Assembly: GCA_022710775.1 (NCBI GenBank)
Contig: JAKLGH010000001.1
Span: forward strand, 69,824-133,823
DNA from: Patescibacteria group bacterium
GTDB taxonomy: Bacteria > Patescibacteriota > Minisyncoccia > Minisyncoccales > UBA5738
DNA: 64,000 nt
Direction of reading: 5' to 3'
A program made the translations under genes and the position numbers. The notes beneath the pieces are model-generated. The model saw only the letters and a list, made by a program, of their open reading frames with translations. It did not search any database and had not been told where the DNA came from. This document shows, in pieces, positions 4,205 through 59,300 of the stretch (position 1 is the first letter of the stretch; every line of letters starts with the position of its first letter).

Positions 4205-5308
4205 TTGAGCCAGCCAGCGCCAAATATGCCAGATACAGATTCTCAAAGCTTTACAAAACCCGATTATTACGAATCGGCTAAAGCGGAATACGATAAATTA
4301 ATAGGACAACTCGGCGACCCCGAGCTCATTTCAAATTGGGAAAAATTCGAAGAACTGAGCAAAAAAAAGGCATATTTGGAAAAGCTGTTGGAAAAAGCCC
4401 AGGAATTGCATGAGGTCGAACAAGCAATCAAGGAAAACCTCTCGATCATATCCACCGAAGAAGAACCTGAACTGACTTCCTTGGCCCAAGCGGAAGCCGA
4501 ACAACTGAAAATTCGCAAATCCTGCCTGGCAAAAGAATTGGATGAAATGATCGGCAACGAAAAAAAACCCAAAGGACCCAAGGCTGTGGTTATTGAAGTC
4601 CGGGCCGGCACCGGCGGCGAAGAAGCTGCTCTGTTCGCTGCCGACCTTTTCCGCATGTATTCGCGATTCGCCCAGAATATGGAATGGACGCAAAAGATTT
4701 TGGATTCCAACCAGACGGAAATCGGCGGTATCAAAGAAATCATCTTTGAATTGCGCGGCAATGAGGTATGGAATTACCTGAAATACGAGGCTGGCGTGCA
4801 TCGAATCCAACGTATTCCGCTCACGGAAAAAAGCGGCCGAATCCATACTTCAACGGCCACGGTTGCCGTATTGCCCAAACCCGACGCCGCCGAATTCAAG
4901 ATTAAAAATGAAGATATTAAGGTTGACTTTTTCTGCTCATCCGGGCCGGGCGGCCAATACGTTAATAAACGCGAAAGCGCGGTACGGCTCACTCATAAAC
5001 CAACCGGTTTGGTTGTTTCATCTCAAACCGAACGAAACCAGTTATCCAACCGGGAAAATGCCATGGCGATTTTAGTTTACCGCATCCAGGAACTCAAGCG
5101 CAAAGAGGAAGAGGAAAAGTACGGCGGAGAACGCAAAACCCAGATCGGCGGGGCCAAGCGCAGCGAAAAAATCCGAACCTACAACATACCCCAAGACCGG
5201 ATCACGGATCACCGAATTAAAAAAAGCTGGTACAATATCGATGATGTCATGAACGGCGCATTGAAACCCATCAGCGAAGAATTGATGGAAACCTTGCCAG
5301 ACGAATAA
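4205..5308 (+). CDS. prfA: peptide chain release factor 1
   Basis: GGQ motif SSGPGGQYVNKRESAVRLTHKPTG. RF1-type tripeptide region QRIPLTEKSGRIHTSTATVAVLP (PxT, not the SPF of RF2). The track start at 4205 is TTG; an in-frame ATG 7 codons downstream (..NMPDTD..) is an alternative start. Confidence 0.9.
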   Translation: MSQPAPNMPDTDSQSFTKPDYYESAKAEYDKLIGQLGDPELISNWEKFEELSKKKAYLEKLLEKAQELHEVEQAIKENLSIISTEEEPELTSLAQAEAEQLKIRKSCLAKELDEMIGNEKKPKGPKAVVIEVRAGTGGEEAALFAADLFRMYSRFAQNMEWTQKILDSNQTEIGGIKEIIFELRGNEVWNYLKYEAGVHRIQRIPLTEKSGRIHTSTATVAVLPKPDAAEFKIKNEDIKVDFFCSSGPGGQYVNKRESAVRLTHKPTGLVVSSQTERNQLSNRENAMAILVYRIQELKRKEEEEKYGGERKTQIGGAKRSEKIRTYNIPQDRITDHRIKKSWYNIDDVMNGALKPISEELMETLPDE

Positions 5309-8076: not shown

Positions 8077-9180
8077 CTATTTCTCCCTGATAGTAAATTT
8101 CTTTTCCAAGCTCTTTAACGTATCCATCACGCCGGTATACTCCAGTTCGCTCATCGGAAGCATCGCCGGCCCGGAGAAACCTTGCCTTCTGATCCATTCG
8201 GCTTTTTGCGAGACATTATTACGGACGTAATCCCAATAAGGATGGTCGAACGCGTCGGCCGGTTCGGTCAGCTTGCCGTTTTGGACGCAGAAAGCCATGC
8301 AGGAAATAATCGGCGGCCCATCAAAATAAGAAATGCATGAATTTCTCTTTACCGGCATCATTGGACCGTTATGAGAACCTCTCATAAAACCCGCCACATA
8401 ATGTCCGATCGTGTAAGGAGACAATATCTCTCCTGTCGCCGGAAAATCCTTTTGAGTGCGGACCAGCATGACCGGATCGTCTTTACCGACGTATTTTCCC
8501 GCCACATTGTGCAATCGCGTGGTTGAAGCAGCGACAACCTGCTCTCCGGATGCCCGCGACCAAACCGATTCCACGATATACTTCCCATTGTCTCTAAGCA
8601 AAACGGCAATATCGTATATCTCCTCGGGTGATTGCAGCTCGATCACTTTATCCTTGCCGGTATGCTCAACATCCATGATCACGAATTTATAACCCTTTTT
8701 CACAGCCGGAGACAATAACAACCCGGCGTTGTGCATCGGATCGCAAAATCCCAGGTATAGCGGCAGGTTGAACGCACCCGGCTCGGTTTTATCGGCACAA
8801 AACATCAAAAAAGACTCAGCTCCCCGTTCCTCGATATCCATCTCAGCTACCTGGGGCCCCATGCCTTTGATATTTCCCGAGAAAGCGTCAACCAGCAAAT
8901 CCTGGCCGGCTCCGTATAATCCCTGTTTTTTAGCCATGTCCGCGCCGGCGTATAAGGCATCGTAACACAATTTATGAATATCCTTGTTTCCGGCGCCTTT
9001 TTTGTGAGTCAGTAATATTGCTATATCGTCTCCGGTAAATTCCACAAAACTATCGATAAACAGTGTTTTTCCGAATTTTTTTACGTGCCCCTCCACCGCA
9101 TCGAATACCTTCTGGCTTGGCTTAATATGGCCGCCAATTGATCCGATATCTGCTTTAATTATACTTAAGGTTACTTTCAT
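8077..9180 (-). CDS. fbp: bifunctional fructose-1,6-bisphosphate aldolase/phosphatase (class V, archaeal-type FBPase)
   Basis: The N-terminus MKVTLSIIKADIGSIGGHIKPS matches the characteristic start of class V FBPase/aldolase. Length is ~367 aa. GPMMPV and DPMHNAGLLLSP regions are present. Confidence 0.88.
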   Translation of the reverse strand: MKVTLSIIKADIGSIGGHIKPSQKVFDAVEGHVKKFGKTLFIDSFVEFTGDDIAILLTHKKGAGNKDIHKLCYDALYAGADMAKKQGLYGAGQDLLVDAFSGNIKGMGPQVAEMDIEERGAESFLMFCADKTEPGAFNLPLYLGFCDPMHNAGLLLSPAVKKGYKFVIMDVEHTGKDKVIELQSPEEIYDIAVLLRDNGKYIVESVWSRASGEQVVAASTTRLHNVAGKYVGKDDPVMLVRTQKDFPATGEILSPYTIGHYVAGFMRGSHNGPMMPVKRNSCISYFDGPPIISCMAFCVQNGKLTEPADAFDHPYWDYVRNNVSQKAEWIRRQGFSGPAMLPMSELEYTGVMDTLKSLEKKFTIREK

Positions 9181-15308: not shown

Positions 15309-16412
15309 CTACCCTCCGCAAGCTCCGCTCGATGCTCCGCTGGAAGAGGAATCGGAACCAAACCCGGACGAAGGACTCTCGTTGGAAAGCTCGGTAGCGC
15401 ATTCGGCCGGTTCGCTATTGAATGCCGCGCAAATAGTTTTTTTAAACTGCTCCGGAGTCCTGGGGCTTACTTCAACTTTCGTATCGTTAATAACTACTGT
15501 CGGGGAACCTTCAACGCCATATTGGACGTTCAATTCGGTATGGACGTCGAATTTCGGGAATTGGCCGCTCAACCATGATGCCTTGTCATTGTAGTTAGCG
15601 GTAACTTTAAATTGGGTATCCGATTCGGAAACGCACTTTCCCAGCACGGATTCATCGATCCGGGCTTCAGCAAGGCATTTCTGGAAATTTGCCGTGCAAT
15701 CGCCGGATTTGCAATCATTATACGCCGTATCAGCCACGAAACAGGCTAAATAGGCCGAATATTTTTCCTTCTGATCCTTTTGAATGCAATATTGCCTTAA
15801 ATTTTCATCGATCTCCGCTTTTCCATGCATAGCGTAATTTACGAAATAAACGCCCATATCGGTTTTATCCTTAAGCAAATCGTAGGCCGGTAAAAACATC
15901 TTTTCCGCAGACAAACCGAAAGGGCAATACGACATTACGAATAGTTTTACGCTGGGCTTATCGCTTTTTTCAACCTGAACCGGTTCGCTTGCCTCCGGCT
16001 CGCCATTGGTCTCCTCCATTTTTACCCCTTGGACAAAAAGCATTTTGCCGTTCTTTGTAACGTAAGATTCATATTCCTGGTCGTCTACTTTTAATTTAAA
16101 AGTGTAAAGGCCATTCTCTTCCTTGACGCTGACTAAAGTCGCGGTTGACCCTTCCGACAGCAAATTTTTGTTCGCGAACTCTATCGCTTTCTCTCCCGCT
16201 TCCTGGGGCGACAGATCCTTTTCTTTCGCCACAATTTTTAGATCAAGTACGCTGCCGGAAAGAACGCTTTTGTTGTCCGCGGCAGTATCCTCGGAACCAT
16301 CATTCTTTACCAACTGGTAGTTGCTGAAAAAATATATTCCTCCCGCTAATAAAACCAACAAAATCACTCCCCCTACATACAGTTTTTTCTTCGTTATTTT
16401 TATTTTATTCAT
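15309..16412 (-). CDS. membrane-anchored thioredoxin-fold (DsbA-like) protein with a Ser/Gly-rich C-terminal tail
   Basis: N-terminal TM segment (LYVGGVILLVLLAGGIYFF). The DsbA-like region is KLFVMSYCPFGLSAEKMF...YGVEGSPTVVIND, with a CPFG motif rather than canonical CxxC. The assignment is tentative. Confidence 0.5.
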   Translation of the reverse strand: MNKIKITKKKLYVGGVILLVLLAGGIYFFSNYQLVKNDGSEDTAADNKSVLSGSVLDLKIVAKEKDLSPQEAGEKAIEFANKNLLSEGSTATLVSVKEENGLYTFKLKVDDQEYESYVTKNGKMLFVQGVKMEETNGEPEASEPVQVEKSDKPSVKLFVMSYCPFGLSAEKMFLPAYDLLKDKTDMGVYFVNYAMHGKAEIDENLRQYCIQKDQKEKYSAYLACFVADTAYNDCKSGDCTANFQKCLAEARIDESVLGKCVSESDTQFKVTANYNDKASWLSGQFPKFDVHTELNVQYGVEGSPTVVINDTKVEVSPRTPEQFKKTICAAFNSEPAECATELSNESPSSGFGSDSSSSGASSGACGG

Positions 16413-17417: not shown

Positions 17418-19157
17418 TTAATCTTTTTGCCGGATCGTAGCAATCCGGCTTTTTTGCTTTTGTTTATAACGCGTATGCAATATATGATGGATCTTTTTCT
17501 GGTCTTTAGCAAAAAAATCGTCATAGATCTTTAATACCTGCGGATTTTCGTGGGCAACCCGGACCTCCTTTTCGCAATCGATCTGATATAAAGCCTGCGC
17601 CCTTTTTTTACGGATCTCGTCGCTGACGGGCAGCGGCTGGCCGCCGCCGCCGATGCATCCGCCGGGACAAGCCATGATTTCAATATAATCGTACGCTTTG
17701 GGATCCTCCGCCAATTCATCCAAGATCAATTTGGCATTTTCCATGCCATTGGCAACCGCAGCTTTGAGCGTCAAATCGCCTATTTTAACCTGGGCTTTCT
17801 TAAAACCAACAATTCCCCGAACGCTTGTGCAAGCAAGATCAGCCATATTTTTACCGGTAAGCCGCCAGTAGGCGGTCCGGATAGCCGATTCCATCACTCC
17901 TCCGGTGGCACCGTAGATCACGCCTGCTCCGGTATGGACGCCAAGCGGATCGTCGGCAGATTCAGCTTTAAGACTCTTCAGGTCTATTTTATTCAGCCGG
18001 AACAGCCGCCCAAGCTCGCGGGTAGTGAGAACCGTATCGATGGGTTTTAAACCGTTTATCCTGGCCTCGGGTTTTTCAATTTCGTATTTCTTGGCCGTGC
18101 AAGGCATGATGGAAACAACCACGATATTCCTTGGATCGATCTTTTCTTTTTGAGCCCAGTAGGTTTTTATCAGGCTGCCCAGCATGTTTTGAGGCGACTT
18201 AACGCTGGTCAGGTTCGGAATCAGGTCGGGCCGGTAAAATTCGACATACTTGACCCAGGCGGGACAACAAGATGTGAACATCGGGAGAATCTTTTTTTGG
18301 CTGATGCGGTCCACCAGTTCTTCGGCTTCTTCGATCGTCGTAAAATCTGCGGCGGTTGACACATCGAATACCTTGTTGAATCCCAGTTTTTTAAGCCCGG
18401 CCACCAGCTGCCCGGTAACAACCGAACCGTAGGGCATTCCGGCCGCTTCGCCGATACTTGCCCTGATGGAAGGCGCGAACTGGACAACCATCACCTTTTT
18501 TTTATCGGCCAGCAGATTCCGGATCTCTTCGAATTCCCCAACCGCCTCGATTGCTCCAACCGGACAGTGGACAATGCATTGGCCGCAATAGATACAATCT
18601 TTTTTAGGATCGTATGACGGCTCGATCACGGTCCGGAAACCCTTGTTTTTCAATTCCAGAAAATTGGCCTGTTGCCGTGAACAAATTTCAACGCAATTGC
18701 GGCAATCGATACATTTGGAGCGGTCAAATTCGATCGGCCCGAATTTATAAGTAGCGAATTTCTTTTTACGGTCGGAAAACCGGTCTATTTTGGCTTTAAA
18801 CTGGGTAACATATTTCAAAAGACGGCATTCGGCGAGCCAAACGCAATCGGCGCATTCCTCACGATGCTGCGACATTATCAATTCCAGATTGGTTTTGCGC
18901 AAAGCCCTTAACCGGTCGTTGTCGGTTATAATCTGCATCCCCTGCCGGATTTTAGTCGCGCACGCGGGAACCACTCCTTTTTCTCCAACAATCTCCACTA
19001 CGCAAATGCGGCAGTTGGCGCGGACCGCCAAATCGGGATGATGGCAAAGGGCGGGAATTTCAATATTGGCCGCTGCCGCGGCCTCGAGTATGCTTTTTCC
19101 TGCCTGCGCTTTGACGGATCGTCCGTCAATCATGATCTCTATTTGTTCTGATTCCAT
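17418..19157 (-). CDS. hydA: [FeFe]-hydrogenase catalytic subunit (HydA/HndD-like, with N-terminal 2Fe-2S and 4Fe-4S ferredoxin domains)
   Basis: H-cluster motifs FTSCCPAWV, MPCTAKKYE and EIMACPGGCIGGGGQP. N-terminal 2Fe-2S region ALCHHPDL..CRICVVE. Two CxxCxxCxxxCP motifs (CIDCRNCVEIC, CIYCGQCIVHCP). Confidence 0.92.
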   Translation of the reverse strand: MESEQIEIMIDGRSVKAQAGKSILEAAAAANIEIPALCHHPDLAVRANCRICVVEIVGEKGVVPACATKIRQGMQIITDNDRLRALRKTNLELIMSQHREECADCVWLAECRLLKYVTQFKAKIDRFSDRKKKFATYKFGPIEFDRSKCIDCRNCVEICSRQQANFLELKNKGFRTVIEPSYDPKKDCIYCGQCIVHCPVGAIEAVGEFEEIRNLLADKKKVMVVQFAPSIRASIGEAAGMPYGSVVTGQLVAGLKKLGFNKVFDVSTAADFTTIEEAEELVDRISQKKILPMFTSCCPAWVKYVEFYRPDLIPNLTSVKSPQNMLGSLIKTYWAQKEKIDPRNIVVVSIMPCTAKKYEIEKPEARINGLKPIDTVLTTRELGRLFRLNKIDLKSLKAESADDPLGVHTGAGVIYGATGGVMESAIRTAYWRLTGKNMADLACTSVRGIVGFKKAQVKIGDLTLKAAVANGMENAKLILDELAEDPKAYDYIEIMACPGGCIGGGGQPLPVSDEIRKKRAQALYQIDCEKEVRVAHENPQVLKIYDDFFAKDQKKIHHILHTRYKQKQKSRIATIRQKD

Positions 19158-20116
19158 AGTTTATTTATCAGGCTCTCAAAAGAATTTGCAACACCTCTTC
19201 CGAACGGGCAAAAACTAGTCTCCTTGAGAACAGCGATTATTGCCTTGGCGCTTTCCGCGTCAAACGCGCCATCTTTTAGCATTTCGTCAAGGCGGTATAC
19301 TCCTTCGCGGCATGGAACGCATTTGCCGCAATTTTCGTTAATGAAAAATCGCGACCATTTTTTCATCAATCCGCATAAATTGGTCTTCTTCTTATCGAAT
19401 ACCGCGATGGAACCGGCTCCGCACAGCGGCTGGTTCAATTCTGATTCAAGCAGTATCTGGCCCGACGCGCCGCCGCCTGCCTGGACAAAAAATTCAAAGG
19501 CGGGAAGATTTCCGGTCTCCCTGAGAATTTTCACAATCGGATAATCTTTGTTCAGTTCAAACACTCCCGGATTTTTAACATCGCCGCAAATGGTATAAAA
19601 ACGGTTTCCGATATATTCACCGGAAGCGATCTTGGCAACCCAAAAAAAAGTTTCCAGATTATTAATCAGGGTCGGACAACCGCGCAAACCCGATTGCGGC
19701 GGATACGGCGGTTTGAAACGGGGCTCCGCGCGGTTTCCTTCGATCACTTCCAGCAATGTTGTTTCTTCTCCACCCAGATATCCGCAAGTTTCTTCGAAAA
19801 GCTCGATCGGCGATCCGGCAGCCAGCGATTTAAGCCTGGTTTTATGCTTCTTGTAATAATCCTTCCTCAAATAAATGATCCCCAAACTGCCTTTGATCGC
19901 GCTCAAAGCCAACTTAACGCCATCGATCACAATTTCCGGATGCTTAGCCAGAAGATACCCGTCTTTGGTAACCGCCGGTTCTCCCTCCGAAACATTGCAA
20001 ATAACATATTTTTTTTCGCCGGGGGCGTCTCTTACCATCTCCCATTTTAAAGCCGTCGGAAAGCCCGCGCCCCCGCAACCGCGCAGGTTAGCGGCTTTTA
20101 TCTTTTCTATGATCAT
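19139..20116 (-). CDS. NuoF/HydB-like NAD(P)H-binding flavoprotein subunit (short, 325 aa)
   Basis: LRGCGGAGFPTALKWEMV, NVSEGEPAVTKDGYLL, GGEETTLLEVIEG and the cluster motif ENCGKCVPCREG, which are NuoF 51-kDa family signatures. Its stop overlaps the hydA start by 19 nt. Confidence 0.85.
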   Translation of the reverse strand: MIIEKIKAANLRGCGGAGFPTALKWEMVRDAPGEKKYVICNVSEGEPAVTKDGYLLAKHPEIVIDGVKLALSAIKGSLGIIYLRKDYYKKHKTRLKSLAAGSPIELFEETCGYLGGEETTLLEVIEGNRAEPRFKPPYPPQSGLRGCPTLINNLETFFWVAKIASGEYIGNRFYTICGDVKNPGVFELNKDYPIVKILRETGNLPAFEFFVQAGGGASGQILLESELNQPLCGAGSIAVFDKKKTNLCGLMKKWSRFFINENCGKCVPCREGVYRLDEMLKDGAFDAESAKAIIAVLKETSFCPFGRGVANSFESLINKLWNQNK

Positions 20117-20121
20117 ATGGG

Positions 20122-23100
20122 TTAAATCGGTTCATTATACGGACTCTGCGGGGTTTTTGATTGCGATTTCGGTTGCGCCGCCGTTTGTTTTTCTTCGACT
20201 GCTTTCAGCCGCTGGACCTTAACCGGATCATTTGAACCCACTACCAGCACCTTCCACAAAAACGGGTCAATCTCAATAATATCGTAGCGTTTGATTTCCT
20301 TGGAAAGCAATGCATTGGCCACCAGATTTTCCACGTTGTTCTGAACCGCCCGCCTCATTGCCCGGCCGCCGAACGCCGGATCAAACCCCAGGTCTCCAAG
20401 CTTCTCGATCAGCTTCTGGCTGATCCTGAACTCAATATCCTTCACGGCCAAGCCTTTCTTTATATCGGCAACCATCAATTGCGCAACCTGCTTCATTTCT
20501 TCTTTATCAAGAGGCCGGTAAAGAACAACTGCGTCAAAGCGGTTTAGGAATTCCGGCTTAAACAATTCGCGCCTAAGCAAATTGTCGATGAATGTTTCCT
20601 TGAAAGCGGCATTCAGCTTGCTGCCCCGGTCCACAGCCTCCTTGATATATTCCGCTCCGGCATTCGATGTGGCAATCATAATGGTTTTTTTGAAATCAAC
20701 TTTCCGGCCCGAACCGTCAGCCATCTCGCCATCGTCAAAAATGCTCAAAAACAGGTTTAAAATATTGGGATGCGCCTTCTCGATCTCGTCGATCAAGATC
20801 AGAGACTGGGGATTCTCCATTACCTGGGTTGTGAAATATCCGGGCGAATTGAGATTGCCGATCAGCTTATCGATCGAATCCATAAGCTGGTACTCGGCCA
20901 TATTGAGCCTGATCATATTCTTCTCCGAACCAAAGTAAACCTTGGCCAGCTGCTTGGCGGTTTCGGTTTTGCCGATACCGGTCGGACCGAGGAACAGGAA
21001 ATTACCGATCGTCCGCTTGCTGGTCTTAATGTCTGCCTGTGCGCGCCTTAAGGCGTTGCAAAGTTCGCTTACCGCCTCTTTCTGGTTGATCAACCCCTGG
21101 TGGATGGTATCTTCCAAATGCATCAGGCGATCCGCTTCGGCATCCTGCTCTTTTTGGTCTCCAATGAATGTTCCTTTCTTCTTTTCGTGGTAAGTGTCTC
21201 GTTCTCCGGGAGGTATAAGTTTCCATTCCGCCGGATCAATTTCAATCACATCGCCCGCTTTAACGGTTCCGGCAAGCACGGCTGTGGCGATAATGTTTTC
21301 CACGTTGTTCTGAACAGCCCGGCGCATGGCCCGGCCGCCGAACGCCGGATCAAAACCCTCGTCGGCCAGCTTGCTGAGCAATTCCGGCGTAATGGCCAGT
21401 TCCATGTTCTTCTCGCGCAGCCCAGCGCGAATATCCTTTAACATCAGTTCGGCTACTTGCTGCATCTCTTCCTTGTTAAGAGGCCGGTAAAGCACCACCG
21501 CATCGAAACGGTTGACGAATTCCGGGCGGAAAACGTTCTTTCTTAATAAATTATCAATGAAAACATCTTTAAAATTGGTAAGCTTGGAACCGCGTTCAAC
21601 CGCCTCTCGAATGTAATCCGCGCCCGCATTGGATGTGGCAATGATAATAGAGTGGCGGAAATCAACTTTCCGGCCCGAACCGTCCACCAGCTCTCCGTCA
21701 TCCAGAATACTCAAAAAAAGGTTAAGCAAATTGGGATGCGCCTTCTCGATCTCGTCGATCAGCAGCAGGCAGAACGGATTTTCCCTGATCGCCGTTGTCA
21801 GATATCCCGGCTGGGTGAGCGACCCGATAAGTTTATCGATCGATTCCAAAAGCTGGTACTCGGCCATATTAAGCCTGATCATATTTTTGTCGGAACCGAA
21901 ATAAACCTTGGCCAGCTGCTTGGCAGTTTCGGTCTTGCCGACGCCCGAAGGCCCCAAGAACAGGAAGTTGCCGATAGTACGCTTTCGTTTTTTTAAATCC
22001 GCCCGGGCGCGCCGCATGGCGTTAGCCAATTCCGAAACCGCTTCTTTCTGGTTGATCAATCCTTGGTGTATCAGATTTTCCATGTTGAGCAGCGTTTCCT
22101 TTTCTTTCTGCGCCGCTGATCCGGCCGGCACCTCGTATTTAGCCGAAAAGAACAGATCGATCTCTTCGGGCAAGATCACGCCTCTAGCCTTGGTAGAACG
22201 GGTCCGTTCGTAAACCATCACGTCATCGAGCAAATCTACGGCCTTCTTGGGAAAAGAAATATCGCCGATGAAATAATCACAGAGCTTGATGATCTCCTGA
22301 AGGCTCAATAAAGGCGCGAAGACGCCGGTCCGAGATTCCCGCCAGACAACCTCTTCCTCCAAAATATGAAGCGTTTCATCAAGACTCGGGCTGGGAACCT
22401 CGATCTTGGCAAAATTACTCGCTACATCCCGATTGGTCTCAATGGATTTATGGTATCCGTCGAAAGAGGTGATTCCGATCAGCCGGAAACCCGGCGTCGT
22501 CAAATACTGGGAAAGAATCCCCGTTATATCAATCTTGGCTACCGCTTCGGCCCCGAAAGATTCACCGACGTAATTATGCATCTGCGGTATGACCAGAATG
22601 ACGTTCTGCGCTTTGATCGCCTCGTTAAAAACTTTTTTTAACCTCACTTCCAACATGCGCTTATCCCCCGCGCTGCCGATCAGAGACGGCATATCAATCT
22701 CTAAAATCCTCATGTACGACAGCTCGCGGAAGCTCATATTCTTCAAGATCTTCTTTGCAAAATTGAAAAGCACGCTTTTCCGTCCGGAACCAACCTCTCC
22801 AACCAAAAGCAGGCAATTGCTATTTTGTTTGATCAAGGTTTCCTCGATATCCTTCACCTGTTTTTCGTGAAGAACAACTCGGCTCCAAAACAAGGGATTG
22901 CGGACCGAAAGATCGCGAGAATACTGGTTTAGGGTCAGGGTATAGCCGCCGACAAGCTCCTGAACCGGGCTCGTCTGGAAGTATAGGCATAAATTCTCCC
23001 GCTCCCAGTATCTGCTCTTTTTCTCTCTGTCAACTCCCAGATTATACATCCACAGCACCGTCTCGATCACATCGTTTCTGACAATTTCCAGCGAATCGAG

Positions 23101-23796
23101 CTCCTTATGAAAAAACGGCTCTTCTTCGAGCAAACTTAACAATAAAGCATAAATATTGATTTTCGGAAAACCGTTATCAACGGCGACCTGCCGCGCGCGC
23201 GACAGCACCGCCTCAATCGCCCTGGTATTATCCTCCTGCAAGATCACAGCTTCCTCGCGGGATCGGGCTTGGGGCTGGGTTTTAGCGTAAGCCAGAAGAT
23301 CTTGCTCGAAGTCTGATTTTTTAATGTAAAGCCGGTTAAAAATAAACAGCAAGCGGCTGCCTTTCAAAAGCATGGATAAAAGCATTAATTTAAAAGGCAA
23401 AGCGCTTTTAGCCAAAGTTGCTTTGATCAACTGGGCCGCCTCGAAATCAAGATAATTCAGCAGGTTTTCCCGCTCGCTCATATTCTCATGAAGAAGCGGC
23501 CCCACCTTCTTCAATTTTTTCTCGACAAAACCAATAACAAGCCAGGAAGAACCCCAAAAGAAAAAAGATAAATAAACCACGGCTAGCAAAAGGTCGCTAG
23601 TAATCTTAGGCAAGGTGATTTTAGCCAGAATCGACGGTAAAAACGCTTTAATAGCTTCCAGTCCGCCAAACATCAACAAAGACAAAATCAACAACACATA
23701 CGCCAAAGGCTTGACGGTTTTAAAAACCCGCAACGGGATCAATTTGGCGTAATCAACCATTTTGAAAGTAAATGCGGATTTTTGATTGAATGCCAT
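20122..23796 (-). CDS. membrane-anchored Clp/Hsp100-family AAA+ ATPase with a degenerate D1 and two tandem D2 modules
   Basis: 1224 aa. Residues ~27-95 are hydrophobic (TM). Clp_N-like repeats are present (ALLLSLLEEEP). In D1 the Walker A is degenerate (GEVGSGRKS) and Walker B is replaced (VILVIPQMH). Two D2 modules of ~287 aa follow (residues ~575-861 and ~897-1184). Each has GPxGxGKTE, LLIDEIEKAHP, SNAG and GGRAMRR motifs. They are offset by exactly 322 aa (966 nt). Confidence 0.85.
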   Translation of the reverse strand: MAFNQKSAFTFKMVDYAKLIPLRVFKTVKPLAYVLLILSLLMFGGLEAIKAFLPSILAKITLPKITSDLLLAVVYLSFFFWGSSWLVIGFVEKKLKKVGPLLHENMSERENLLNYLDFEAAQLIKATLAKSALPFKLMLLSMLLKGSRLLFIFNRLYIKKSDFEQDLLAYAKTQPQARSREEAVILQEDNTRAIEAVLSRARQVAVDNGFPKINIYALLLSLLEEEPFFHKELDSLEIVRNDVIETVLWMYNLGVDREKKSRYWERENLCLYFQTSPVQELVGGYTLTLNQYSRDLSVRNPLFWSRVVLHEKQVKDIEETLIKQNSNCLLLVGEVGSGRKSVLFNFAKKILKNMSFRELSYMRILEIDMPSLIGSAGDKRMLEVRLKKVFNEAIKAQNVILVIPQMHNYVGESFGAEAVAKIDITGILSQYLTTPGFRLIGITSFDGYHKSIETNRDVASNFAKIEVPSPSLDETLHILEEEVVWRESRTGVFAPLLSLQEIIKLCDYFIGDISFPKKAVDLLDDVMVYERTRSTKARGVILPEEIDLFFSAKYEVPAGSAAQKEKETLLNMENLIHQGLINQKEAVSELANAMRRARADLKKRKRTIGNFLFLGPSGVGKTETAKQLAKVYFGSDKNMIRLNMAEYQLLESIDKLIGSLTQPGYLTTAIRENPFCLLLIDEIEKAHPNLLNLFLSILDDGELVDGSGRKVDFRHSIIIATSNAGADYIREAVERGSKLTNFKDVFIDNLLRKNVFRPEFVNRFDAVVLYRPLNKEEMQQVAELMLKDIRAGLREKNMELAITPELLSKLADEGFDPAFGGRAMRRAVQNNVENIIATAVLAGTVKAGDVIEIDPAEWKLIPPGERDTYHEKKKGTFIGDQKEQDAEADRLMHLEDTIHQGLINQKEAVSELCNALRRAQADIKTSKRTIGNFLFLGPTGIGKTETAKQLAKVYFGSEKNMIRLNMAEYQLMDSIDKLIGNLNSPGYFTTQVMENPQSLILIDEIEKAHPNILNLFLSIFDDGEMADGSGRKVDFKKTIMIATSNAGAEYIKEAVDRGSKLNAAFKETFIDNLLRRELFKPEFLNRFDAVVLYRPLDKEEMKQVAQLMVADIKKGLAVKDIEFRISQKLIEKLGDLGFDPAFGGRAMRRAVQNNVENLVANALLSKEIKRYDIIEIDPFLWKVLVVGSNDPVKVQRLKAVEEKQTAAQPKSQSKTPQSPYNEPI

Positions 23797-23846
23797 GTGG
23801 TTAAAATATTAAATCTGCCGCAACGGGTTCGCCTCGTTTTAGAATC

Positions 23847-24040
23847 GAATATATATTTTTCTATCGGTATTTCGCCTCCCGGGGTACGAACCCCCGGCGG
23901 TGACCGAAGGAAATCCCGAAGCATTGAGGGGCGACCAGAGGATGTTTCCTCCGGACTCCTCATTTCTGCGCGCTTTTTGCGGGCAGGAAGCCTAAGGCTT
24001 CATTTTGTTCCCAGGACTTGCCCGGGGTCTACAAATTAAT
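23847..24040 (-). repeat. GC-rich structured intergenic element, copy C (long form), 5' of the Hsp100-like gene
   Basis: Essentially identical to copy B. It begins 10 nt after the stop of the upstream (minus-strand) gene at 24051. It ends ~50 nt before the ATG at 23796. Confidence 0.9.
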
Positions 24041-24050
24041 AAATTATCGC

Positions 24051-24560
24051 CTACTTTCCAGGCAGGGAGAGCAGCAATTGAAACCCTTTAAAAAAAGCGA
24101 ATACCAAGGCGAACAAAAACATTGCCCAGATCAGAAATGAGGCGATTCCCGCCAGAAAAACAAGCACCATCAAAATCATGCCGATTGCCAAAGCAAACGT
24201 CCTGATCAGCATGCCCATAAAGCGCGAAAAAGCGTTAGAAAACGCTACGTAAAACATTTCGCCGAAATCAAAACCCACGGATTCCCGCTCGAAGTTCAAG
24301 CCTTTCCAAGGCGAAAAAAAATCATGGATCAATTCGCGGATAGCAAAATACTTTTCAAAAAACCAGAGGTAATTTACCCAGACGTGTTTGATCTGTTTAG
24401 GCAGTTCAACAAAATACCAAGAAAAAAATAGATCGATCATGATAAGATGGATCGTTTTTTGAAAACCACGAAATAGTTCAGCTTTATCGGCTGGAGGAAT
24501 TCTCCGCTGGGATTTTCCGCGGCAATACCTGCCAACCTTAAAACACAACTTAAGATACAA
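24051..24560 (-). CDS. hypothetical membrane protein
   Basis: The C-terminal half has 2-3 TM helices (LIRTFALAIGMILMVLVFLAGIASFLIWAMFLFALVFAFF). The real start may be the internal ATG at 24440 (MIDLFFSWYF..), because a terminator-like hairpin lies at 24583..24627. Confidence 0.5.
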   Translation of the reverse strand: MYLKLCFKVGRYCRGKSQRRIPPADKAELFRGFQKTIHLIMIDLFFSWYFVELPKQIKHVWVNYLWFFEKYFAIRELIHDFFSPWKGLNFERESVGFDFGEMFYVAFSNAFSRFMGMLIRTFALAIGMILMVLVFLAGIASFLIWAMFLFALVFAFFKGFQLLLSLPGK

Positions 24561-33510: not shown

Positions 33511-34614
33511 TTACCGCGCGATAAATCCTCCGCCGATCAAGCGGCTGCCTTGGTAGAATACGGCGGACTGGCCGGGCGTTATGGCCGGCTGGGGCCGCGC
33601 GAATTCCAGACAGACCAGGCCTTTTTTCTTTTTTATCAGTCCGGCCGCCGCCTTGGACCGCGAACGGATCTTTACTTTGACCGACAGCGGCAGTTTAGGG
33701 CAGATTCCGGCCGTCCAGTTAAGGCCGCCAAGAATCGCGGTTTTTCCGGACAGATCCGATTTTCTTTTCGAAACGGCCAGTACGTTGGCCTTCGCGTTCT
33801 TTGAAACAACGTAATAAGGGCCGCCGGATAATTTTATGCCTTTGCGCTGGCCGATGGTATAATGCCACAAGCCGTCATGAGTCCCGATCTTTTTGCCAAA
33901 ACTATCCACGATATCCCCAGGCCTGGCCGCCAGCCTTTTGCTCAAAAAAACGTCGGTGCCCGCGGGCGCAAAACATGCTTCCTGGGATTCCGGCGTATCG
34001 CGCGAAGGCAAAGCAAGCTCTTGCGCCGCGGCACGAACTTCGGCTTTGGTAAATTCTCCCAGCGGAAAAATTATTTTGGAAAGCTCCTTCTGGGTCAATT
34101 GCCACAAATAATATGATTGGTCCTTCTCTTTGTCTTTTCCCTTTAAAAGCTCAAAAATCCCATCCTTCCTCAATTTTATCCGGGCATAATGGCCGGTAGC
34201 CGCGCGCGCGGCGCCCAGCTCTTTCGCTTTTTTCAAAAGGCGGCCGAATTTGATGGCCTTATTGCAAACCACGCAGGGATTCGGCGTCAATCCGTTCTGC
34301 GTTCCCTTGAGGAAATCACCGACCACCTTTTTTTTGAACTCGTCCGAAAAATCCAGTACGTGAAAGGGGATACCCAATTTCCCCGCCGTCAGCTCGGCCC
34401 GGCGCCGGGCATCACACATACAGTCTAAATTGGCAGATTGCGCCTCACCCGCGCCAAGATCGTCTACCCAAAATTTCATAAACACTCCGATCACGTCAAA
34501 ACCCGCCTTTTTTAACAAAAAAGCCGCCACCGCGCTATCCACCCCCCCGGATATTGCGCAAAGCACCCGGATTTTTTCATCGGTTTTTTCCATTGCTCCA
34601 TAATAGCTTTTCAC
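33511..34614 (-). CDS. mnmA: tRNA-specific 2-thiouridylase
   Basis: PP-loop IRVLCAISGGVDSAVAAFLLKKAG, TPNPCVVCNKAIKF, and ATGHYAR. Confidence 0.95.
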   Translation of the reverse strand: MKSYYGAMEKTDEKIRVLCAISGGVDSAVAAFLLKKAGFDVIGVFMKFWVDDLGAGEAQSANLDCMCDARRRAELTAGKLGIPFHVLDFSDEFKKKVVGDFLKGTQNGLTPNPCVVCNKAIKFGRLLKKAKELGAARAATGHYARIKLRKDGIFELLKGKDKEKDQSYYLWQLTQKELSKIIFPLGEFTKAEVRAAAQELALPSRDTPESQEACFAPAGTDVFLSKRLAARPGDIVDSFGKKIGTHDGLWHYTIGQRKGIKLSGGPYYVVSKNAKANVLAVSKRKSDLSGKTAILGGLNWTAGICPKLPLSVKVKIRSRSKAAAGLIKKKKGLVCLEFARPQPAITPGQSAVFYQGSRLIGGGFIAR

Positions 34615-54049: not shown

Positions 54050-54078
54050 TTGACAAAAACAGATGATGGCGATATATA
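54050..54078 (+). promoter_or_regulatory. candidate promoter TTGACA-N17-TATATA of the TetR-MFP-RND operon
   Basis: TTGACA at 54050..54055, 17-nt spacer, TATATA at 54073..54078. Confidence 0.55.
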
Positions 54079-54093
54079 GACTAAGTCAAACTG

Positions 54094-54109
54094 CCTACCA
54101 AACGGTAGG
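54094..54109. promoter_or_regulatory. inverted repeat CCTACC-AAAC-GGTAGG, candidate TetR operator
   Basis: A perfect 6-bp-arm palindrome ~16 nt downstream of the -10 hexamer and upstream of the TetR start. Confidence 0.4.
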
Positions 54110-54149
54110 TAATTTATATACCGTATGGCAAAATTACCCGTTAAATTCC

Positions 54150-54704
54150 ATGGATAACCGATGCTGCACCAAATCAAAGATCCTGGCCGCGGCCCGGAAA
54201 CTATTTTCAAAAAGAGGATATGCCCTCACTTCCCTGGATGAGATCGCAAAAAATGTTTCGATAGCCAAACCGTCCCTGTTTTACCACTTTAAGAACAAAG
54301 AGAATATTTATGCCAGCGTCGCGAAAAATTCGCTTGCCGTGATCATAAGCGACCTGGAAATTTATTTGGAAGAAAGCCGCCTCAAGCAAAGAAACCTTGA
54401 AAAAATCCTGGTTGAAGTGATCGAAAAACGCCTTAACGACGAAATCGTTATCAGGCTGGTCGATATGAAAATGATCGGCTTGGACCAGGAAGTCATTATT
54501 AGCATCCGCGAAGACCTGCAAAAAATACGCAATTTGGTCCGTAAGATCCTGGAAGTTTACGATATCAAAAATCCTAAACTGGCGGCGGAAGTCCTGATCA
54601 ATTCGGTTAATTGCTACGTATTGCATGCAAACGGCAATCTTTCGGAAATTCCGCCCAAAAAATACGGCGCGTACCTGGCTTCCCTTTTTTGCAAAAACGC
54701 TTAA
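54150..54704 (+). CDS. TetR/AcrR-family transcriptional regulator
   Basis: KILAAARKLFSKRGYALTSLDEIAKNVSIAKPSLFYHFKNKENIY is the TetR HTH signature. The ATG at 54150 is preferred because the track start (54063) lies inside the predicted promoter. Confidence 0.85.
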   Translation: MDNRCCTKSKILAAARKLFSKRGYALTSLDEIAKNVSIAKPSLFYHFKNKENIYASVAKNSLAVIISDLEIYLEESRLKQRNLEKILVEVIEKRLNDEIVIRLVDMKMIGLDQEVIISIREDLQKIRNLVRKILEVYDIKNPKLAAEVLINSVNCYVLHANGNLSEIPPKKYGAYLASLFCKNA

Positions 54705-54755
54705 AAAAATGGTAATAACGTTGATACCTAAGAAAATACTAAAAAATAAAATAAC

Positions 54756-56360
54756 ATGCCAACTCCCGATTTTCTCAAAAAAAACCCGATTCTGACTTTT
54801 TTTGTTTGCGCCGTAATAATCATTTTAATCCTGATCCAGCTGCCTAAGATCCGGCAAGCAGCCATTAACGGCGAAAATGCCAGAGACGCGGCGGCGGTGA
54901 GCCTGATTACGATCAGCGATTATAAAAAAACGTCTTCGATCACGCTGGACAGCGGCTTGGTCGAATCGATAAGCCAGGCCGATCTGCGAAGCCAATTCTC
55001 GGCTCCGGTCGAATCGGTCAACGTCGCCTTGGGCGACCGCGTAGCTAAGGGCCAGATTCTTGTCTCGCTTAAAAATGACGATCTGACTGCCCAGCTCGAC
55101 CAGGCTAAAGCCGGTTTGGTAAGTTCCCAAGCCTCTCTTCAAACCGCGGAAAACGGAGCCAGGCCCCAAGAATTGGAAATTTCGAAAACCCAAGCCAGGC
55201 AAGCGGCTCTGTCCCTGGAAGCGGCTCTCCGGGATTCTTACGCCAAAGCCGACGACAGCGTCAGAAACCATATTGATAAATTTTTTCTGAACCCCTCAAG
55301 CAGCTCGCCGGATTTCTTAATCATCATCAATTCCGAAGGGACCACGATCCGATATGGCGCGATCGGCAATGAACAAGCGGCTTTAGCTGAAGCCAAGCGG
55401 GTTGAAATGGAAAAACGCCTGAACAGCTGGCAACAAGACCTGGCGTCGATGGATGGATCCGCTGATCTTTCCAACCATATTTTAACCGCGGCTTCAAACC
55501 TCGAATTCTTGATCGATTTTTTAAATGATCTTTCTCCTTTAGCCAACGCCATTACCGCCAACAACGGCGCGGAAAAACAGGTTTTAGACGGATATAAAAG
55601 CGAACTTTCCGCGGCCCGATCAGCGGCCGCCGGATCATTAGCCTCGCTGCTCGGATCCGAAACAAGTTGGAAGCTGGCGGTCCAGTCGCTGGACCTGATG
55701 AAAGCCGGATCGACCAAAGAACAGCTGATACAAGCCAAAGCTATGGTGGCCCAAGCCGCGGCATCGGTCGAGGCTCTCGAAGCCCAAGTGGAAAAAACCG
55801 TCATCAGAACTCCAATCGCGGGCACTATCTCCTATTTGGATGCGCGCCTCGGAGAAGTGGCCGCCTTTGGACAGCTTGTCGCGTCTATTATCAATCCCGG
55901 CGCTTTGCAGATCAAAACCTATGCCAGCATCGAAGACCTGCCTAATATTGCTATTAATGACCGGGTTGAAATCGGAGACGGCCGGGCGGTCGGTTATGTT
56001 TACCGGATATCCCCGGCGATCGATCCGGCCTTGAAAAAAGCCGAAGCGATCGTCATCGTCGACAAAAACAGCGCTGATTCGCCCATCGTCGCCGGCCAAA
56101 CCGTGAATTTAAGCATCGAAAGCAAAAAAAGCGGATCCAAAACGCTTTATTTGCTGCCGATCCAAGCCGTTAAAACCAACGGGGCAAGCTACGTATACGC
56201 CGCCAGCGGCGAAAACACGGTCGTATCGATTCCGGTAACCGTGGGAAACCTGGTCGGCGAAACAATTGAAGTTTGGGGAGATTTTAACGCGGACCAAAAA
56301 ATTATTTCTTCGGTTATGGGCATCGCGCCGGGAAATAAAGTAATAATCAGCGAACAATAG
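54756..56360 (+). CDS. efflux RND periplasmic adaptor (membrane fusion protein, HlyD-like) with a long coiled-coil hairpin
   Basis: N-terminal TM, lipoyl-like KGQILVSLKNDDLTAQLDQAKAGL, a long Ala/Gln-rich coiled coil, then IRTPIAGTISYLDARLGEVA. Confidence 0.85.
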   Translation: MPTPDFLKKNPILTFFVCAVIIILILIQLPKIRQAAINGENARDAAAVSLITISDYKKTSSITLDSGLVESISQADLRSQFSAPVESVNVALGDRVAKGQILVSLKNDDLTAQLDQAKAGLVSSQASLQTAENGARPQELEISKTQARQAALSLEAALRDSYAKADDSVRNHIDKFFLNPSSSSPDFLIIINSEGTTIRYGAIGNEQAALAEAKRVEMEKRLNSWQQDLASMDGSADLSNHILTAASNLEFLIDFLNDLSPLANAITANNGAEKQVLDGYKSELSAARSAAAGSLASLLGSETSWKLAVQSLDLMKAGSTKEQLIQAKAMVAQAAASVEALEAQVEKTVIRTPIAGTISYLDARLGEVAAFGQLVASIINPGALQIKTYASIEDLPNIAINDRVEIGDGRAVGYVYRISPAIDPALKKAEAIVIVDKNSADSPIVAGQTVNLSIESKKSGSKTLYLLPIQAVKTNGASYVYAASGENTVVSIPVTVGNLVGETIEVWGDFNADQKIISSVMGIAPGNKVIISEQ

Positions 56361-56361
56361 C

Positions 56362-59300
56362 ATGTCAGGAAAATCATCATCCGATTACCAATACTTGAAC
56401 CGGCTGGAGTTTAAACCGGAGCTCAAAAAGACCTGGTTGAATTTTTTTGTCTCCCGCTTCCGCGTCGTCATTTTGCTCATTCTTTTGATCACGGCTTGGG
56501 GCCTGTATTCCTATTTCAAACTCCCCCGCGAATCCAATCCCGAAGTAAAAATCCCGATCGCGGTGGTTTCAACCGTTTTCCCGGGAGCGTCTCCAACCGA
56601 CATTGAGGAATTGATAACCAAAAAAGTCGAAACCAAGATCTCCGGGCTGAAAGGCGTAGACTCGATAACCTCCTATTCATCCAATTCCGTTTCGACGGTA
56701 GTCGTGGAATTCGACGCCAAAGAAGACCTTGAAGACTCCATCAGGAGCGTGCGCGACAGCGTTTCCACCTTGAAGAACAGCCTGCCGGAAAACGCCAATG
56801 ACCCGGTCGTAAACCAGATATCGCTTGACGATACGCCCATCCTGACAGTCGCCGTCAGCGGTCCCTACGACGGATTTGCCTTGCGCGACCATGCCGACAA
56901 CATCAAGGACGAGCTGGAAAAGATCAGCGGCGTAAGGGAAGTGATGATTTCGGGCGGAGACCAAAAAGAAATATCCGTTTCCTGCCTGCCGGAAAAACTC
57001 CGTTTTTACGGCGTTTCCGTCGACCAGGTAACTTCAAGCCTCGCTGCCGCCAACCTTTCGATGCCTTCCGGAAATTTTGACGGCGGCACCTACGTCTATT
57101 CGATCTCGGCCGACGCGAGGGTTTACGACGCCGAAGCTTTCGGCCAGATTCCGATAGCGGCAGGCGGCACCCTGGCTCCCGTCTACTTAAAAGACGTAGC
57201 CGAGGTTAAGGAAACCGCCATCAAGAAAACCGCCTATTCGCGGATCTCTTCGGCGGGCCAAGCGCCTTTGGATGCCGTTGAGATCAGTATCGTCAAAAGG
57301 GCGGGCGGAAATATCATCGAAACCGCGGATGCCGCGAAACTGGCTTTTGATTCCTACATCGCAAAAAATCCGGGATTAAGATACGACGTAACGCTTGACC
57401 AATCCGATTATATCCGGGAAGATTTCGACCAGTTGACGCACGATTTCATCCTTACTATTTTCCTGGTAATGGGCGTTCTGCTTTTGATGGTCGGATTCAA
57501 AGAAGCTTTTGTCGCCGGCTTGGCCATACCTTTGGTCTTTTTCGTCTCTTTCGGGGTAATGAGCCTTTCGGGTATTACCATGAACTTTCTTTCAACTTTC
57601 GCTTTACTGCTGTCGCTGGGCTTGATCGTCGATGACGCCATCGTTGTCGTTTCGGCAACCAAGATGTACATGCGCACCGGAAAATTCACGCCCGAAGAAG
57701 CGATTCTTTTGGTTTTAAACGATTTCAAGGTCGTACTTACCGCCACGACGCTGACCACGGTCTGGGCCTTTTTGCCTTTGCTTTTTTCATCCGGCATTAT
57801 GGGCATTTTTATCCGGTCGGTTCCAATCGTCCTCTCGGTTACCCTTATCTCTTCGCTGGCTATCGCGCTGATGGTCAACCATCCTTTAGCCGCTGTTCTT
57901 GAAAGAGTGCGCTTAACTCCCGTTTTTTTCTTTATTTACCTCTCTCTGGCGTTTTTGGCCGCCCTCTCGCTCCTGGCTCAAGGCGGCATCGTTTCAACTG
58001 TCATCGCCGCGGCGATCATCGTTGCCGTCGGCGCGCTGATATTCTGGTATGAACGCGGAGGAAAGAAACCGCTTTGGGAAAACCGCCGCCTGCTCTACCT
58101 TGAAGCGAAAAGCGACGAACTGATAAAGGCCAAGCTAAAGGCCCAATCCTTAAACGACGATAAAACCGATTTTAGCGCCAGATTGTCGCACGGCATCGCC
58201 AATATCAACGCTTTCCTGCCATTGTACGAGAAACATCTGGCCATGCTGATCGACGATAAAAAGAAAAGGAAATTTTTTTTGGCGGCGGTATTCGGCTTGT
58301 TCCTGGCGGCGGCGGCGCTGCCAATCCTTGGAATAGTTAAAACCGAGTTCTTTCCGGCCGACGATTTTAATTATCTTACCATTAATATTGAAGCCCCCAT
58401 CGGATACAAGCTGGAAAAGACCGGCGCAATCGTCTCTAAGGTCGAGGAAAAATTGCTGGCTTACAAGGAAATAAAGAATTTCTCGACCGTGGTCGGCGGA
58501 TCAGCCGCCACGGATACTTTTACTTCAGGATCCTCCTCATCCGCGGACACGGCCGGCATAACGATAAATCTTGTACCCAAAAGCGAACGCAAACTAAAAT
58601 CCTATGAACTCGGCGAATTGATGCGGAATGATTTCGCGGATATTAAGGATGCTAAAATCGTCGTTACCGAGCTTCAAGGCGGACCGCCAAGCGGTTCGGC
58701 TTTCGAAGCCGACATTATGGGAGACGATCTGGATGAACTGACCCGCATCGCCAACGACCTTAAACCCCGGCTGGAAAAGATCAGCGGCGTCATCAACGCC
58801 GACATTTCGTTAAAAGAAGCTCCCCCGGAATATACCTTTATCCTAAACCAGCAAAAACTGGCCGAGCACAGCCTGAATGCCGCCTATGTCGGCGCGGTTT
58901 TGCGCAGCGCTGTTTCGGGCACCGAAGCGACAACGGTATTCAGCAATAACAAGGAAATATCGGTGAATGTCCGTTTCGATCCCGGATCGATCCCGTCATT
59001 GAACGATATCCAGAACCTTCAGATCGTCAACCTCGCCAAGCAGCCGGTTTATCTGAAAGATGTGGCCGATATCAAACTGGTGCCCAGCGTCCGCACCATC
59101 GAACGAATCGATCAAAAAAGGACGGTCGTCCTTTCCTCCGACGTAGCCGCGACCGCCAATGCCAACCTGGTTTTATCCGAATTCCAAAGCATATTAAAAA
59201 ATGACTATAAACTGCCCCAGGGCTATGAAATATCTTACGGGGGGCAAAATGAGGAAAACGCCAATTCGGTCATGTCGATCTTACTGGCCATGATCGTAGC

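Follow-up and report, generated by a model that had tools for sequence, protein, structure and literature searches.

The 64,000-nucleotide stretch analysed here, referred to as the window, covers positions 69,824 to 133,823 of contig JAKLGH010000001.1 in the Patescibacteria group bacterium assembly GCA_022710775.1. On its minus strand, at positions 20122..23796, it encodes an Hsp100/Clp protein of unprecedented domain plan, which belongs to an undescribed membrane-anchored subfamily. The protein of 1224 amino acids (aa) combines a predicted N-terminal membrane anchor with three AAA+ modules, namely a D1-type module that appears to be catalytically dead and two consecutive D2-type modules, termed D2a and D2b in the following. 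To our knowledge, canonical Hsp100/Clp proteins are soluble unfoldases with two rings, as textbooks describe them, and we know of essentially no information on the proteostasis and membrane biology of the Patescibacteria, which are not culturable alone. Neither a membrane-anchored Hsp100, nor an Hsp100 with three AAA+ modules, nor a Clp family of the Candidate Phyla Radiation (CPR) was found in the open-access literature, an absence that is not proof of novelty.

Results and Discussion

The gene consists of one unbroken open reading frame (ORF), as had been proposed in an initial annotation made from the DNA sequence alone, and all motif positions listed there proved exact. From the N- to the C-terminus, the protein is arranged as transmembrane hairpin, Clp_N, putatively dead D1, D2a, D2b and disordered tail:

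20122..23796, minus strand: whole gene, 1224-aa Hsp100/Clp-like ATPase with predicted membrane anchor (ORF, Pfam, NCBIfam, AlphaFold)
23524..23727, minus strand: predicted two-helix transmembrane hairpin at the N-terminus (aa 24-91; Kyte-Doolittle, two long helices in the model)
22966..23496, minus strand: divergent Clp_N, an all-helical double-repeat domain (aa 101-277; profile versus PDB, model)
22177..22926, minus strand: D1-type AAA+ module, predicted to be catalytically dead (aa 291-540; alignment to ClpC/ClpB D1, family motif table)
21196..22176, minus strand: D2a, AAA_2 plus ClpB_D2-small (aa 541-867; Walker A 21928-21954, Walker B 21733-21765)
20227..21195, minus strand: D2b, second AAA_2 plus ClpB_D2-small (aa 868-1190; Walker A 20962-20988, Walker B 20767-20799)
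20125..20226, minus strand: poorly conserved C-terminal tail (aa 1191-1224; tails vary among orthologues)

A Pfam scan of the protein returned two AAA_2 and two ClpB_D2-small domains, consistent with the two complete D2-type modules that had been recognised initially, and the best sequence match was to class-I Clp proteins (ClpC/ClpA, E=8.6e-101). Among the NCBIfam models, ClpB, ClpA, ClpG, ClpV and ClpK ranked highest, with every score far under the curated cut-off: 668 versus 1232 for ClpB (TIGR03346), 594 versus 993 for ClpA and 505 versus 885 for ClpV/TssH (TIGR03345). No type VI secretion system families were present among the neighbouring genes looked up. The AlphaFold monomer model, calculated from a 33-sequence alignment, reached a mean predicted local distance difference test score (pLDDT) of 81.8 and a predicted template modelling score (pTM) of 0.56. 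The tail is disordered from about aa 1204, as the last 21 model residues (~aa 1204-1224) have a pLDDT below 50. Foldseek matched the full model best to ClpC, ClpB and ClpA protomers, the template modelling scores being 0.81 or lower over ~580 columns; since the superposition on ClpB D1-D2 does not single out one pair of modules, these matches are uninformative as to the placement of the third module.

The probability that this architecture is an artefact, be it a tandem repeat made by the assembly or two adjacent genes joined via a missed stop or frameshift, is practically nil. The same protein is encoded in identical form on 14 independently assembled contigs, which stem from differing samples and assemblers (SPAdes, MEGAHIT and JGI assemblies) and reach lengths of up to 404 kb, as in Ga0116241_10000047; its GenBank name is 'AAA family ATPase [Candidatus Paceibacterota bacterium]'. 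Seven more orthologue clusters at 90% identity, whose proteins comprise 1188-1224 aa and share 53-94% identity over 97-100% of the length, likewise keep all three modules, and orthologues as low as 53% identity retain a single uninterrupted ORF. The two D2 copies differ at 33% of their nucleotides and are only 49% identical at third codon positions, which indicates an old duplication rather than a collapsed or expanded repeat. No evidence in favour of an artefact was found, the repeat-linked assembly breaks being confined to an upstream 204-nt element outside the coding region. We therefore reject the artefact and regard the ORF as genuine, a chromosomal gene from a bacterium of the Paceibacteria type (Patescibacteria/CPR), neither an assembly error nor a fusion of two genes. 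Among GTDB species representatives, we found three distinct three-module genes at four loci, and nearly all records are labelled as Patescibacteria metagenome-assembled genomes. In one such genome, the same three-module gene occurs twice with identical flanks in the matched region (CAZUST010000004.1 and CAZUST010000001.1, our loci L007 and L008), which may reflect a duplicated region or redundant binning.

The N-terminus contains two hydrophobic segments, aa 24-54 and aa 69-91, which are predicted to span the membrane and are modelled as two long helices. The membrane anchoring and the hydrophobic N-terminus put forward in the initial annotation, which had allowed for two to three helices, are thus retained as predictions, and a third helix is not. 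Stretches rich in Lys and Arg lie ahead of the first segment and behind the second, from which we infer an N-in/C-in topology, and the hairpin with its basic flanks recurs across the family. The two predicted helices would argue against a soluble protein. The adjoining region was correctly recognised as Clp_N-like: a family profile matched Clp N-domains of the PDB with a best E-value of 7.6e-6, in register across 112 residues, and all 50 best fold matches of a separate N-domain model (pLDDT 88.7) were Clp/Hsp100 N-domains, with template modelling scores of 0.55-0.73. As a single sequence it falls under the Pfam threshold, and the domain is therefore considered divergent.

Judged from its residues, D1 has lost catalysis. 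The profile alignment to ClpC/ClpB D1 shows the catalytic residues lost rather than intact, in accordance with the initial suspicion. In Walker A (GEVGSGRKS, 22774-22800), GEPGVGKT has become GEVGSGRK with an exchange of Lys for Arg, and at the Walker B position (VILVIPQMH, 22576-22602), DE is replaced by PQ. The Arg fingers are gone (ERRF to ASNF, i.e. RR to SN), as are the pore-loop Tyr (KYRGEFE to DKRMLEV, i.e. KYR to DKR) and the sensor-2 Arg. The D1 fold is retained according to both the ClpC/ClpB alignment and the AlphaFold model. The rate of nonsynonymous substitution (dN) of D1 is 0.061 in the closest pair, and the ratio to the synonymous rate (dN/dS) was estimated at 0.05-0.14 in the two pairs with computable dS, which is saturated. 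D1 thus appears to be under purifying selection despite its probable catalytic loss. The M-domain, the middle domain of ClpB, is missing as initially noticed: ClpC residues 407-468 find no counterpart, ClpA aligns as one stretch, and the AlphaFold model contains no long coiled coil.

Both D2 modules carry a full set of catalytic motifs, with GPxGxGKTE, SNAG and GGRAMRR in each copy and LLIDEIEKAHP or ILIDEIEKAHP as Walker B. Walker A, Walker B, the sensor-1 Asn, the Arg finger and the sensor-2 Arg are invariant in D2a and D2b of eight out of eight orthologues, and sensor-2 reads GGR in both modules where GAR would be expected. Across the module cores as first delimited, D2a and D2b are 73.2% identical (210/287), matching the earlier estimate of about three quarters. 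Over the full repeat unit, which takes in the linker helix N-terminal to D2 (327 columns, aa 541-867 versus 861-1190), identity amounts to 67.6% for the protein and 67% for the DNA. The offset between the copies, initially given as exactly 966 nt, has this value over the first two-thirds and changes to 969 nt past a one-codon indel. At the junction of D2a and D2b the model contains a loop of ~13 residues with low confidence, and the equivalent point between D1 and D2a is of low confidence as well. For three pairs of orthologues, dN of D2a and D2b was 0.058 versus 0.059, 0.117 versus 0.123 and 0.253 versus 0.264, suggesting equally strong purifying selection on both modules. Since dN is low in D1 and equal in the two D2 copies, all three modules appear to be maintained by selection.

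The D2 modules deviate from canonical Clp proteins at two loops. At the site of the ClpC xLGF loop both copies show an 8-residue gap relative to ClpC homologues, so the ClpP-docking loop is absent, as the initial annotation had suspected. A further feature, on which that annotation did not remark, is a 6-residue deletion across the PPGYVG pore-loop segment of both copies, on which HMMER and MAFFT alignments agree. The tip of the shortened loop carries Tyr in the three-module clade only (PGYLT/PGYFT), whereas relatives have Leu, Val, Phe or Ile there; in every case this residue is hydrophobic or aromatic, and L/F comes next.

Compared with ClpC and ClpA, the protein shares Clp_N, a D1-type and a D2-type module (AAA_2 plus ClpB_D2-small), and it resembles ClpA in lacking the long M-domain. 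It differs from both in its predicted membrane anchor, the apparently dead D1, the third AAA+ module, the missing xGF docking loop for ClpP and a D2 pore loop that is 6 residues shorter. With ClpB/Hsp104 it has in common the absence of a docking loop, a D2 that is 40-45% similar and the D2 catalytic residues, but it lacks the M-domain and with it any obvious coupling to Hsp70, and it differs in its putatively dead D1, the transmembrane anchor and the extra D2.

To place these traits in a wider context, we used a HMMER search against 1.84 billion cluster representatives (50% identity). At E<=1e-30, it retrieved 10,391 proteins, among which one representative, that of the protein's own cluster (P0004), spans all three modules. 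Of the other best representatives, 145 out of 149 contain an N-terminal transmembrane segment, all 149 have the short D2 pore loop, and none of the 149 has the ClpP loop. The D1 Walker motifs are degenerate to differing extents within this set, and the following series can be drawn up in the order Walker A, Walker B, Arg fingers and pore loop:

canonical ClpC: GKTA / DE / RR / KYR
Daviesbacteria-type group: GKTA / EE, pore Tyr lost
P0012-19: GRKS, DE variable, Arg fingers absent
P0008-11 plus three-module clade: GRKS / PQ

The anchor, the decay of D1, the short pore loop and the lack of a ClpP loop and an M-domain are therefore traits of a large uncharacterised Patescibacteria family, and the third module alone is clade-specific. 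The 1224-aa protein is the three-module variant of this undescribed family of membrane-anchored Clp-like proteins, whose members are named only 'AAA family ATPase' or 'ClpC' in public databases. Among the traits initially singled out as unusual, the third module remains so, but the anchor and the dead D1 are the family norm.

Neighbour-joining trees were used to trace the history of the third module. The D2a and D2b copies all fall together in one clade with a bootstrap support (BS) of 100, which excludes the single D2 of the relatives P0008 and P0011 that also have a dead-type D1, and D2b is monophyletic with BS 75. The exclusion of the P0008 and P0011 modules implies one duplication, which took place after the loss of D1 function. 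The trees thereby show that the complete D2 unit, ~322 aa including its linker helix, was duplicated once and in frame in the ancestor of a small clade. In a tree of the N-terminal domain and D1, the two-module proteins P0049, P0010, L009, L011 and L012 nest with the three-module protein P0005 (BS 98), and this group as a whole lies within the three-module clade (BS 100); the single D2 of these two-module proteins groups with D2a. As they are nested in the three-module clade, the module must have been lost again at least once. The N-terminal half of their single D2 is nearer to D2a and the C-terminal half nearer to D2b, a pattern that fits an in-register recombinational deletion. We do not take it as proof of such a collapse, resulting in a chimeric D2, since unequal rates after the duplication would yield it as well.

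This history bears on the question of whether the third module is merely a tolerated, redundant duplication without a new mechanism, the protein working just as its two-module relatives do. The nesting of two-module proteins inside the three-module clade (BS 98-100 in the N-domain and D1 tree) and the single D2 in most of the family speak for it. A redundant copy would, however, be expected to decay like D1, whereas the catalytic residues of D2b are complete in all orthologues and its dN equals that of D2a down to 55% identity. As a triple design has also evolved convergently elsewhere, we regard redundancy as quite improbable. The initial idea that the duplicated D2 compensates for D1 holds in so far as it would restore two active rings; it does not account for D1 decay being older than the duplication and widespread in proteins with one D2, or for the renewed loss of the module.

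The convergent case is P0064 (L019, 6001-9057), a 1018-aa metagenomic protein annotated by JGI as 'ClpA' and known from a single contig. Behind a hydrophobic N-terminus, the first of its D2-type modules is degenerate (Walker B ED, sensor-1 Asn replaced by Ser, no pore loop), and next come two active D2 modules that are 66% identical to each other. P0064 differs from the present protein in that all three modules are of the D2 type, Clp_N and a D1-type module are absent, the pore loops are canonical (PPGY) and the gene lies in an unrelated context with shikimate-pathway genes. P0064 is unrelated, and the plan of one dead module and two live D2 modules has hence arisen at least twice.

Across the family, the ATPase gene is accompanied by a small upstream gene, on which the initial annotation had not remarked and which in the window is separated from it by a dispersed repeat:

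24051..24440, minus strand: partner gene encoding a 129-aa protein, found immediately upstream of the ATPase gene throughout the family
23844..24047, no strand assigned: 204-nt dispersed repeat, 'copy C', with further copies at 1342-1545 and 1653-1856

The partner protein combines an amphipathic N-terminal half with two C-terminal transmembrane helices, and no Pfam or PADLOC family matched it. A homologue of 124-129 aa is located directly upstream of the ATPase gene in seven out of seven related loci, with a 4-nt overlap of the two genes in L009 and L013. Altogether, the partner homologues fall into 93 clusters from Paceibacterota/Minisyncoccales, all of them stand-alone proteins without a single fusion. 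Three divergent partners (123-134 aa) occur in wholly different neighbourhoods (L014-L017), and the next gene again encodes a Clp-like ATPase; two of these ATPases are complete (820 and 836 aa). Partner and ATPase genes share 19-23 nt or leave a gap of 8 nt. The adjacency of partner and ATPase across unrelated contexts marks them as a conserved two-gene unit. We also considered homology of the partner to the N-terminal extension of the Daviesbacteria-type membrane ClpC (P0029 group), which, despite a pairwise E-value of 0.02, was rejected on a profile-profile probability of 1.9%.

In relatives without the 204-nt repeat, the two genes abut or overlap, and the 254 nt between them in the window are explained by the insertion of the repeat. 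The element copy placed upstream of the gene by the initial annotation is thus a real repeat, with copies that are 91-99% identical. As an RNA it would be strongly structured (minimum free energy -75.8, z=-3.85); it has no Rfam family and is possibly an element similar to miniature inverted-repeat transposable elements or a small RNA. Related contigs hold more copies, and L003 and L004 break or rearrange within the repeat. A scan for sigma-70 promoters in the upstream region gave nothing above chance near the gene.

Taken together, we favour, with some reserve, the reading that the protein is a ClpP-independent hexameric motor under the membrane, which combines an inert D1 spacer ring with two active D2 rings and acts on membrane-associated polypeptides. 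Six chains would assemble beneath the cytoplasmic membrane with their N-terminal face towards the bilayer, and the 12 anchor helices, probably together with the partner protein, would constitute the membrane-embedded part. The D1 ring would serve as an inert scaffold or spacer, either nucleotide-independent or restricted to ATP binding, and D2a and D2b would form two stacked ATP-hydrolysing motors. Because of the 8-residue gap at the xLGF loop, the machine is expected to act without ClpP. In AAA+ motors with an N-terminal anchor, FtsH and Msp1 among them, this anchor puts the substrate-entry face at the membrane, which forms the basis of the proposed pulling direction: membrane-associated polypeptides would be pulled or remodelled in the direction that leads from the membrane into the cytoplasm. 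With the second D2 ring, a lineage whose D1 presumably neither grips nor hydrolyses would regain a stack of two motors. That a plan of one dead module and two live D2 modules is viable is suggested by the convergence of P0064 on it.

Several points weigh against this reading. Three-ring stacking, the hexamer, membrane insertion and topology are predictions, and the pTM of the AlphaFold model is only 0.56. The canonical GYVG pore-loop segment is absent from both D2 modules, so that the label 'unfoldase' is uncertain for the three-module protein; with this segment deleted and the tip residue variable, classical hand-over-hand threading is not assured. Finally, nested lineages have lost the third module again, which is hence not essential to the function of the family.

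Known systems offer partial parallels to the proposed motor. FtsH and Msp1/ATAD1 share the N-terminal transmembrane anchor, but they belong to other AAA+ clades and have a single ring and canonical aromatic pore loops, and FtsH brings its own protease. In NSF (D2), Pex1/Pex6 (D1) and ATAD2/Yta7 (AAA2), one ring is kept as a non-hydrolysing scaffold and the other one works. A third tier, if there is any, is not AAA+ in these proteins, and none of them has two active rings and a dead one. Yta7 is reported to form a 'three-tiered' hexamer (PMC9898759).

The altered pore loops raise the alternative of a non-threading remodeller or switch similar to Torsins, which would use ATP to remodel a membrane complex or its partner without translocation through the pore. 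Torsins, Hsp100-like ATPases associated with membranes, have no aromatic pore loops and depend on transmembrane cofactors (PMC5425593), and this precedent is matched by the deletion of GYVG in both D2 copies and in 149/149 representatives, a loop tip that is not kept aromatic, the lost pore-loop Tyr of D1 and a transmembrane partner that looks obligatory. Torsins with their partners LAP1/LULL1 and the present protein are also alike in the Hsp100-D2-like module, the hydrophobic N-terminal membrane association and the transmembrane partner proteins. However, Torsins are eukaryotic proteins of the endoplasmic reticulum lumen with one module and no Arg finger of their own, whereas each D2 module here supplies the Arg finger itself, along with sensor-1, sensor-2 and the Walker B Glu, so that all catalytic residues are present in cis. 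As the residue at the shortened tip is always hydrophobic or aromatic, with L/F next to it, and the Clp_N substrate/adaptor domain is kept, we consider a mode of action without threading unlikely.

The conserved pairing with a protein of two transmembrane helices would also suit an export or translocon motor, in which the three-tier ATPase drives unfolded proteins into a pore made up of anchor hairpins and partner. A hexamer would bring 12 transmembrane helices plus those of the partner, and the Clp_N profile matches the N-domain of Plasmodium Hsp101 (PDB 4iod), the motor of the Plasmodium PTEX translocon; EccC of type VII secretion provides a precedent for a multi-tier, membrane-tethered ATPase. 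The geometry argues in the opposite direction, since substrates of Hsp100 proteins enter at the N-terminal/D1 face and exit at D2, which with an N-terminal anchor would lead them away from the membrane. Secretion-system genes are not conserved nearby and the pore loops are non-canonical, and we deem an export function distinctly unlikely.

A role in anti-phage defence, as an ATPase similar to Dodola DolB or to PDC-M37B, was also considered. PADLOC indeed matched DolB (E=7e-62) and PDC-M37B, but the matches are limited to the generic AAA_2 core, in case of DolB to profile positions 118-279 of 375. No partner resembling DolA was identified, the upstream partner fits no PADLOC model, and a housekeeping synteny with FtsZ, enolase, a GltB-like protein and hydrogenase is kept in genomes that are 53% diverged. 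Membership in a defence system is accordingly rejected as a candidate, the similarity being only that of generic AAA_2 domains, and its probability is very small.

Downstream, in the region 17418-20116 (minus strand), a gene for a NuoF-like flavoprotein begins 5 nt past the Clp stop codon and overlaps a gene for a HydA-type [FeFe]-hydrogenase, which is followed by genes for a 171-aa unknown protein and a DUF1858 protein. The adjacency of the Clp gene to the NuoF/hydrogenase genes is kept in most relatives, with extra genes inserted in the P0007 genome, and it probably reflects synteny rather than function.

The window also contains a type V-A-like CRISPR-Cas locus (CRISPR: clustered regularly interspaced short palindromic repeats), where the GC content falls to 0.35-0.38. 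Its array at 59881-60721 comprises 14 exact 36-nt repeats (ATCTACAAAAGTAGAAATTGAATATGCCTATTAGAG) with spacers of 25-28 nt, and beside it lie Cas1, Cas4 and a Cas12a-type gene, which is cut by the window end and of which the C-terminal RuvC/NUC part is included. A 1129-aa ORF was rejected as a Cas12a candidate. Directly upstream of the array, at 54063-59751 on the plus strand, a TetR-family regulator, a HlyD-type membrane-fusion protein and an AcrB-family resistance-nodulation-division transporter are encoded; they form an efflux operon, something unusual to find in a CPR genome of reduced size. The four 367-aa ORFs of the window were rejected as copies of an insertion sequence element, as they are unrelated (6-8% identity) and their equal length is coincidental; the first of them encodes a class-I peptide chain release factor. 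The ORFs concerned are:

61197-62171, minus strand: CRISPR-side ORF
62176-62715, minus strand: CRISPR-side ORF
62715-63986, minus strand: CRISPR-side ORF
4205-5308, plus strand: 367-aa ORF, the release factor
8077-9180, minus strand: 367-aa ORF
15309-16412, minus strand: 367-aa ORF
33511-34614, minus strand: 367-aa ORF

Conclusion

The three-module protein provides a natural experiment on how many motor rings threading needs and on what an inert ring contributes. Its clade records the evolution of ring number, with one gain, at least one loss and one convergent case, and the analysis brings to light a large unannotated Patescibacteria family of Clp-like ATPases that are anchored in the membrane and have a small membrane protein as their dedicated partner. 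Going further, one may speculate that a hexameric three-ring ATPase, through its anchor hairpins, joins with the partner to form a Patescibacteria-specific membrane machine for ATP-driven protein dislocation or import, a proposal that we put forward as an unlikely one. If true, this machine would be analogous in function to Cdc48-Hrd1, Ycf2-FtsHi or PTEX, and its inert spacer ring and short non-canonical pore loops would, in this clade, be part of the first three-ring AAA+ stack to occur naturally in a protein of the Hsp100 type. It would then possibly represent the main route by which these episymbiotic, genome-reduced cells extract or exchange their membrane and surface proteins.

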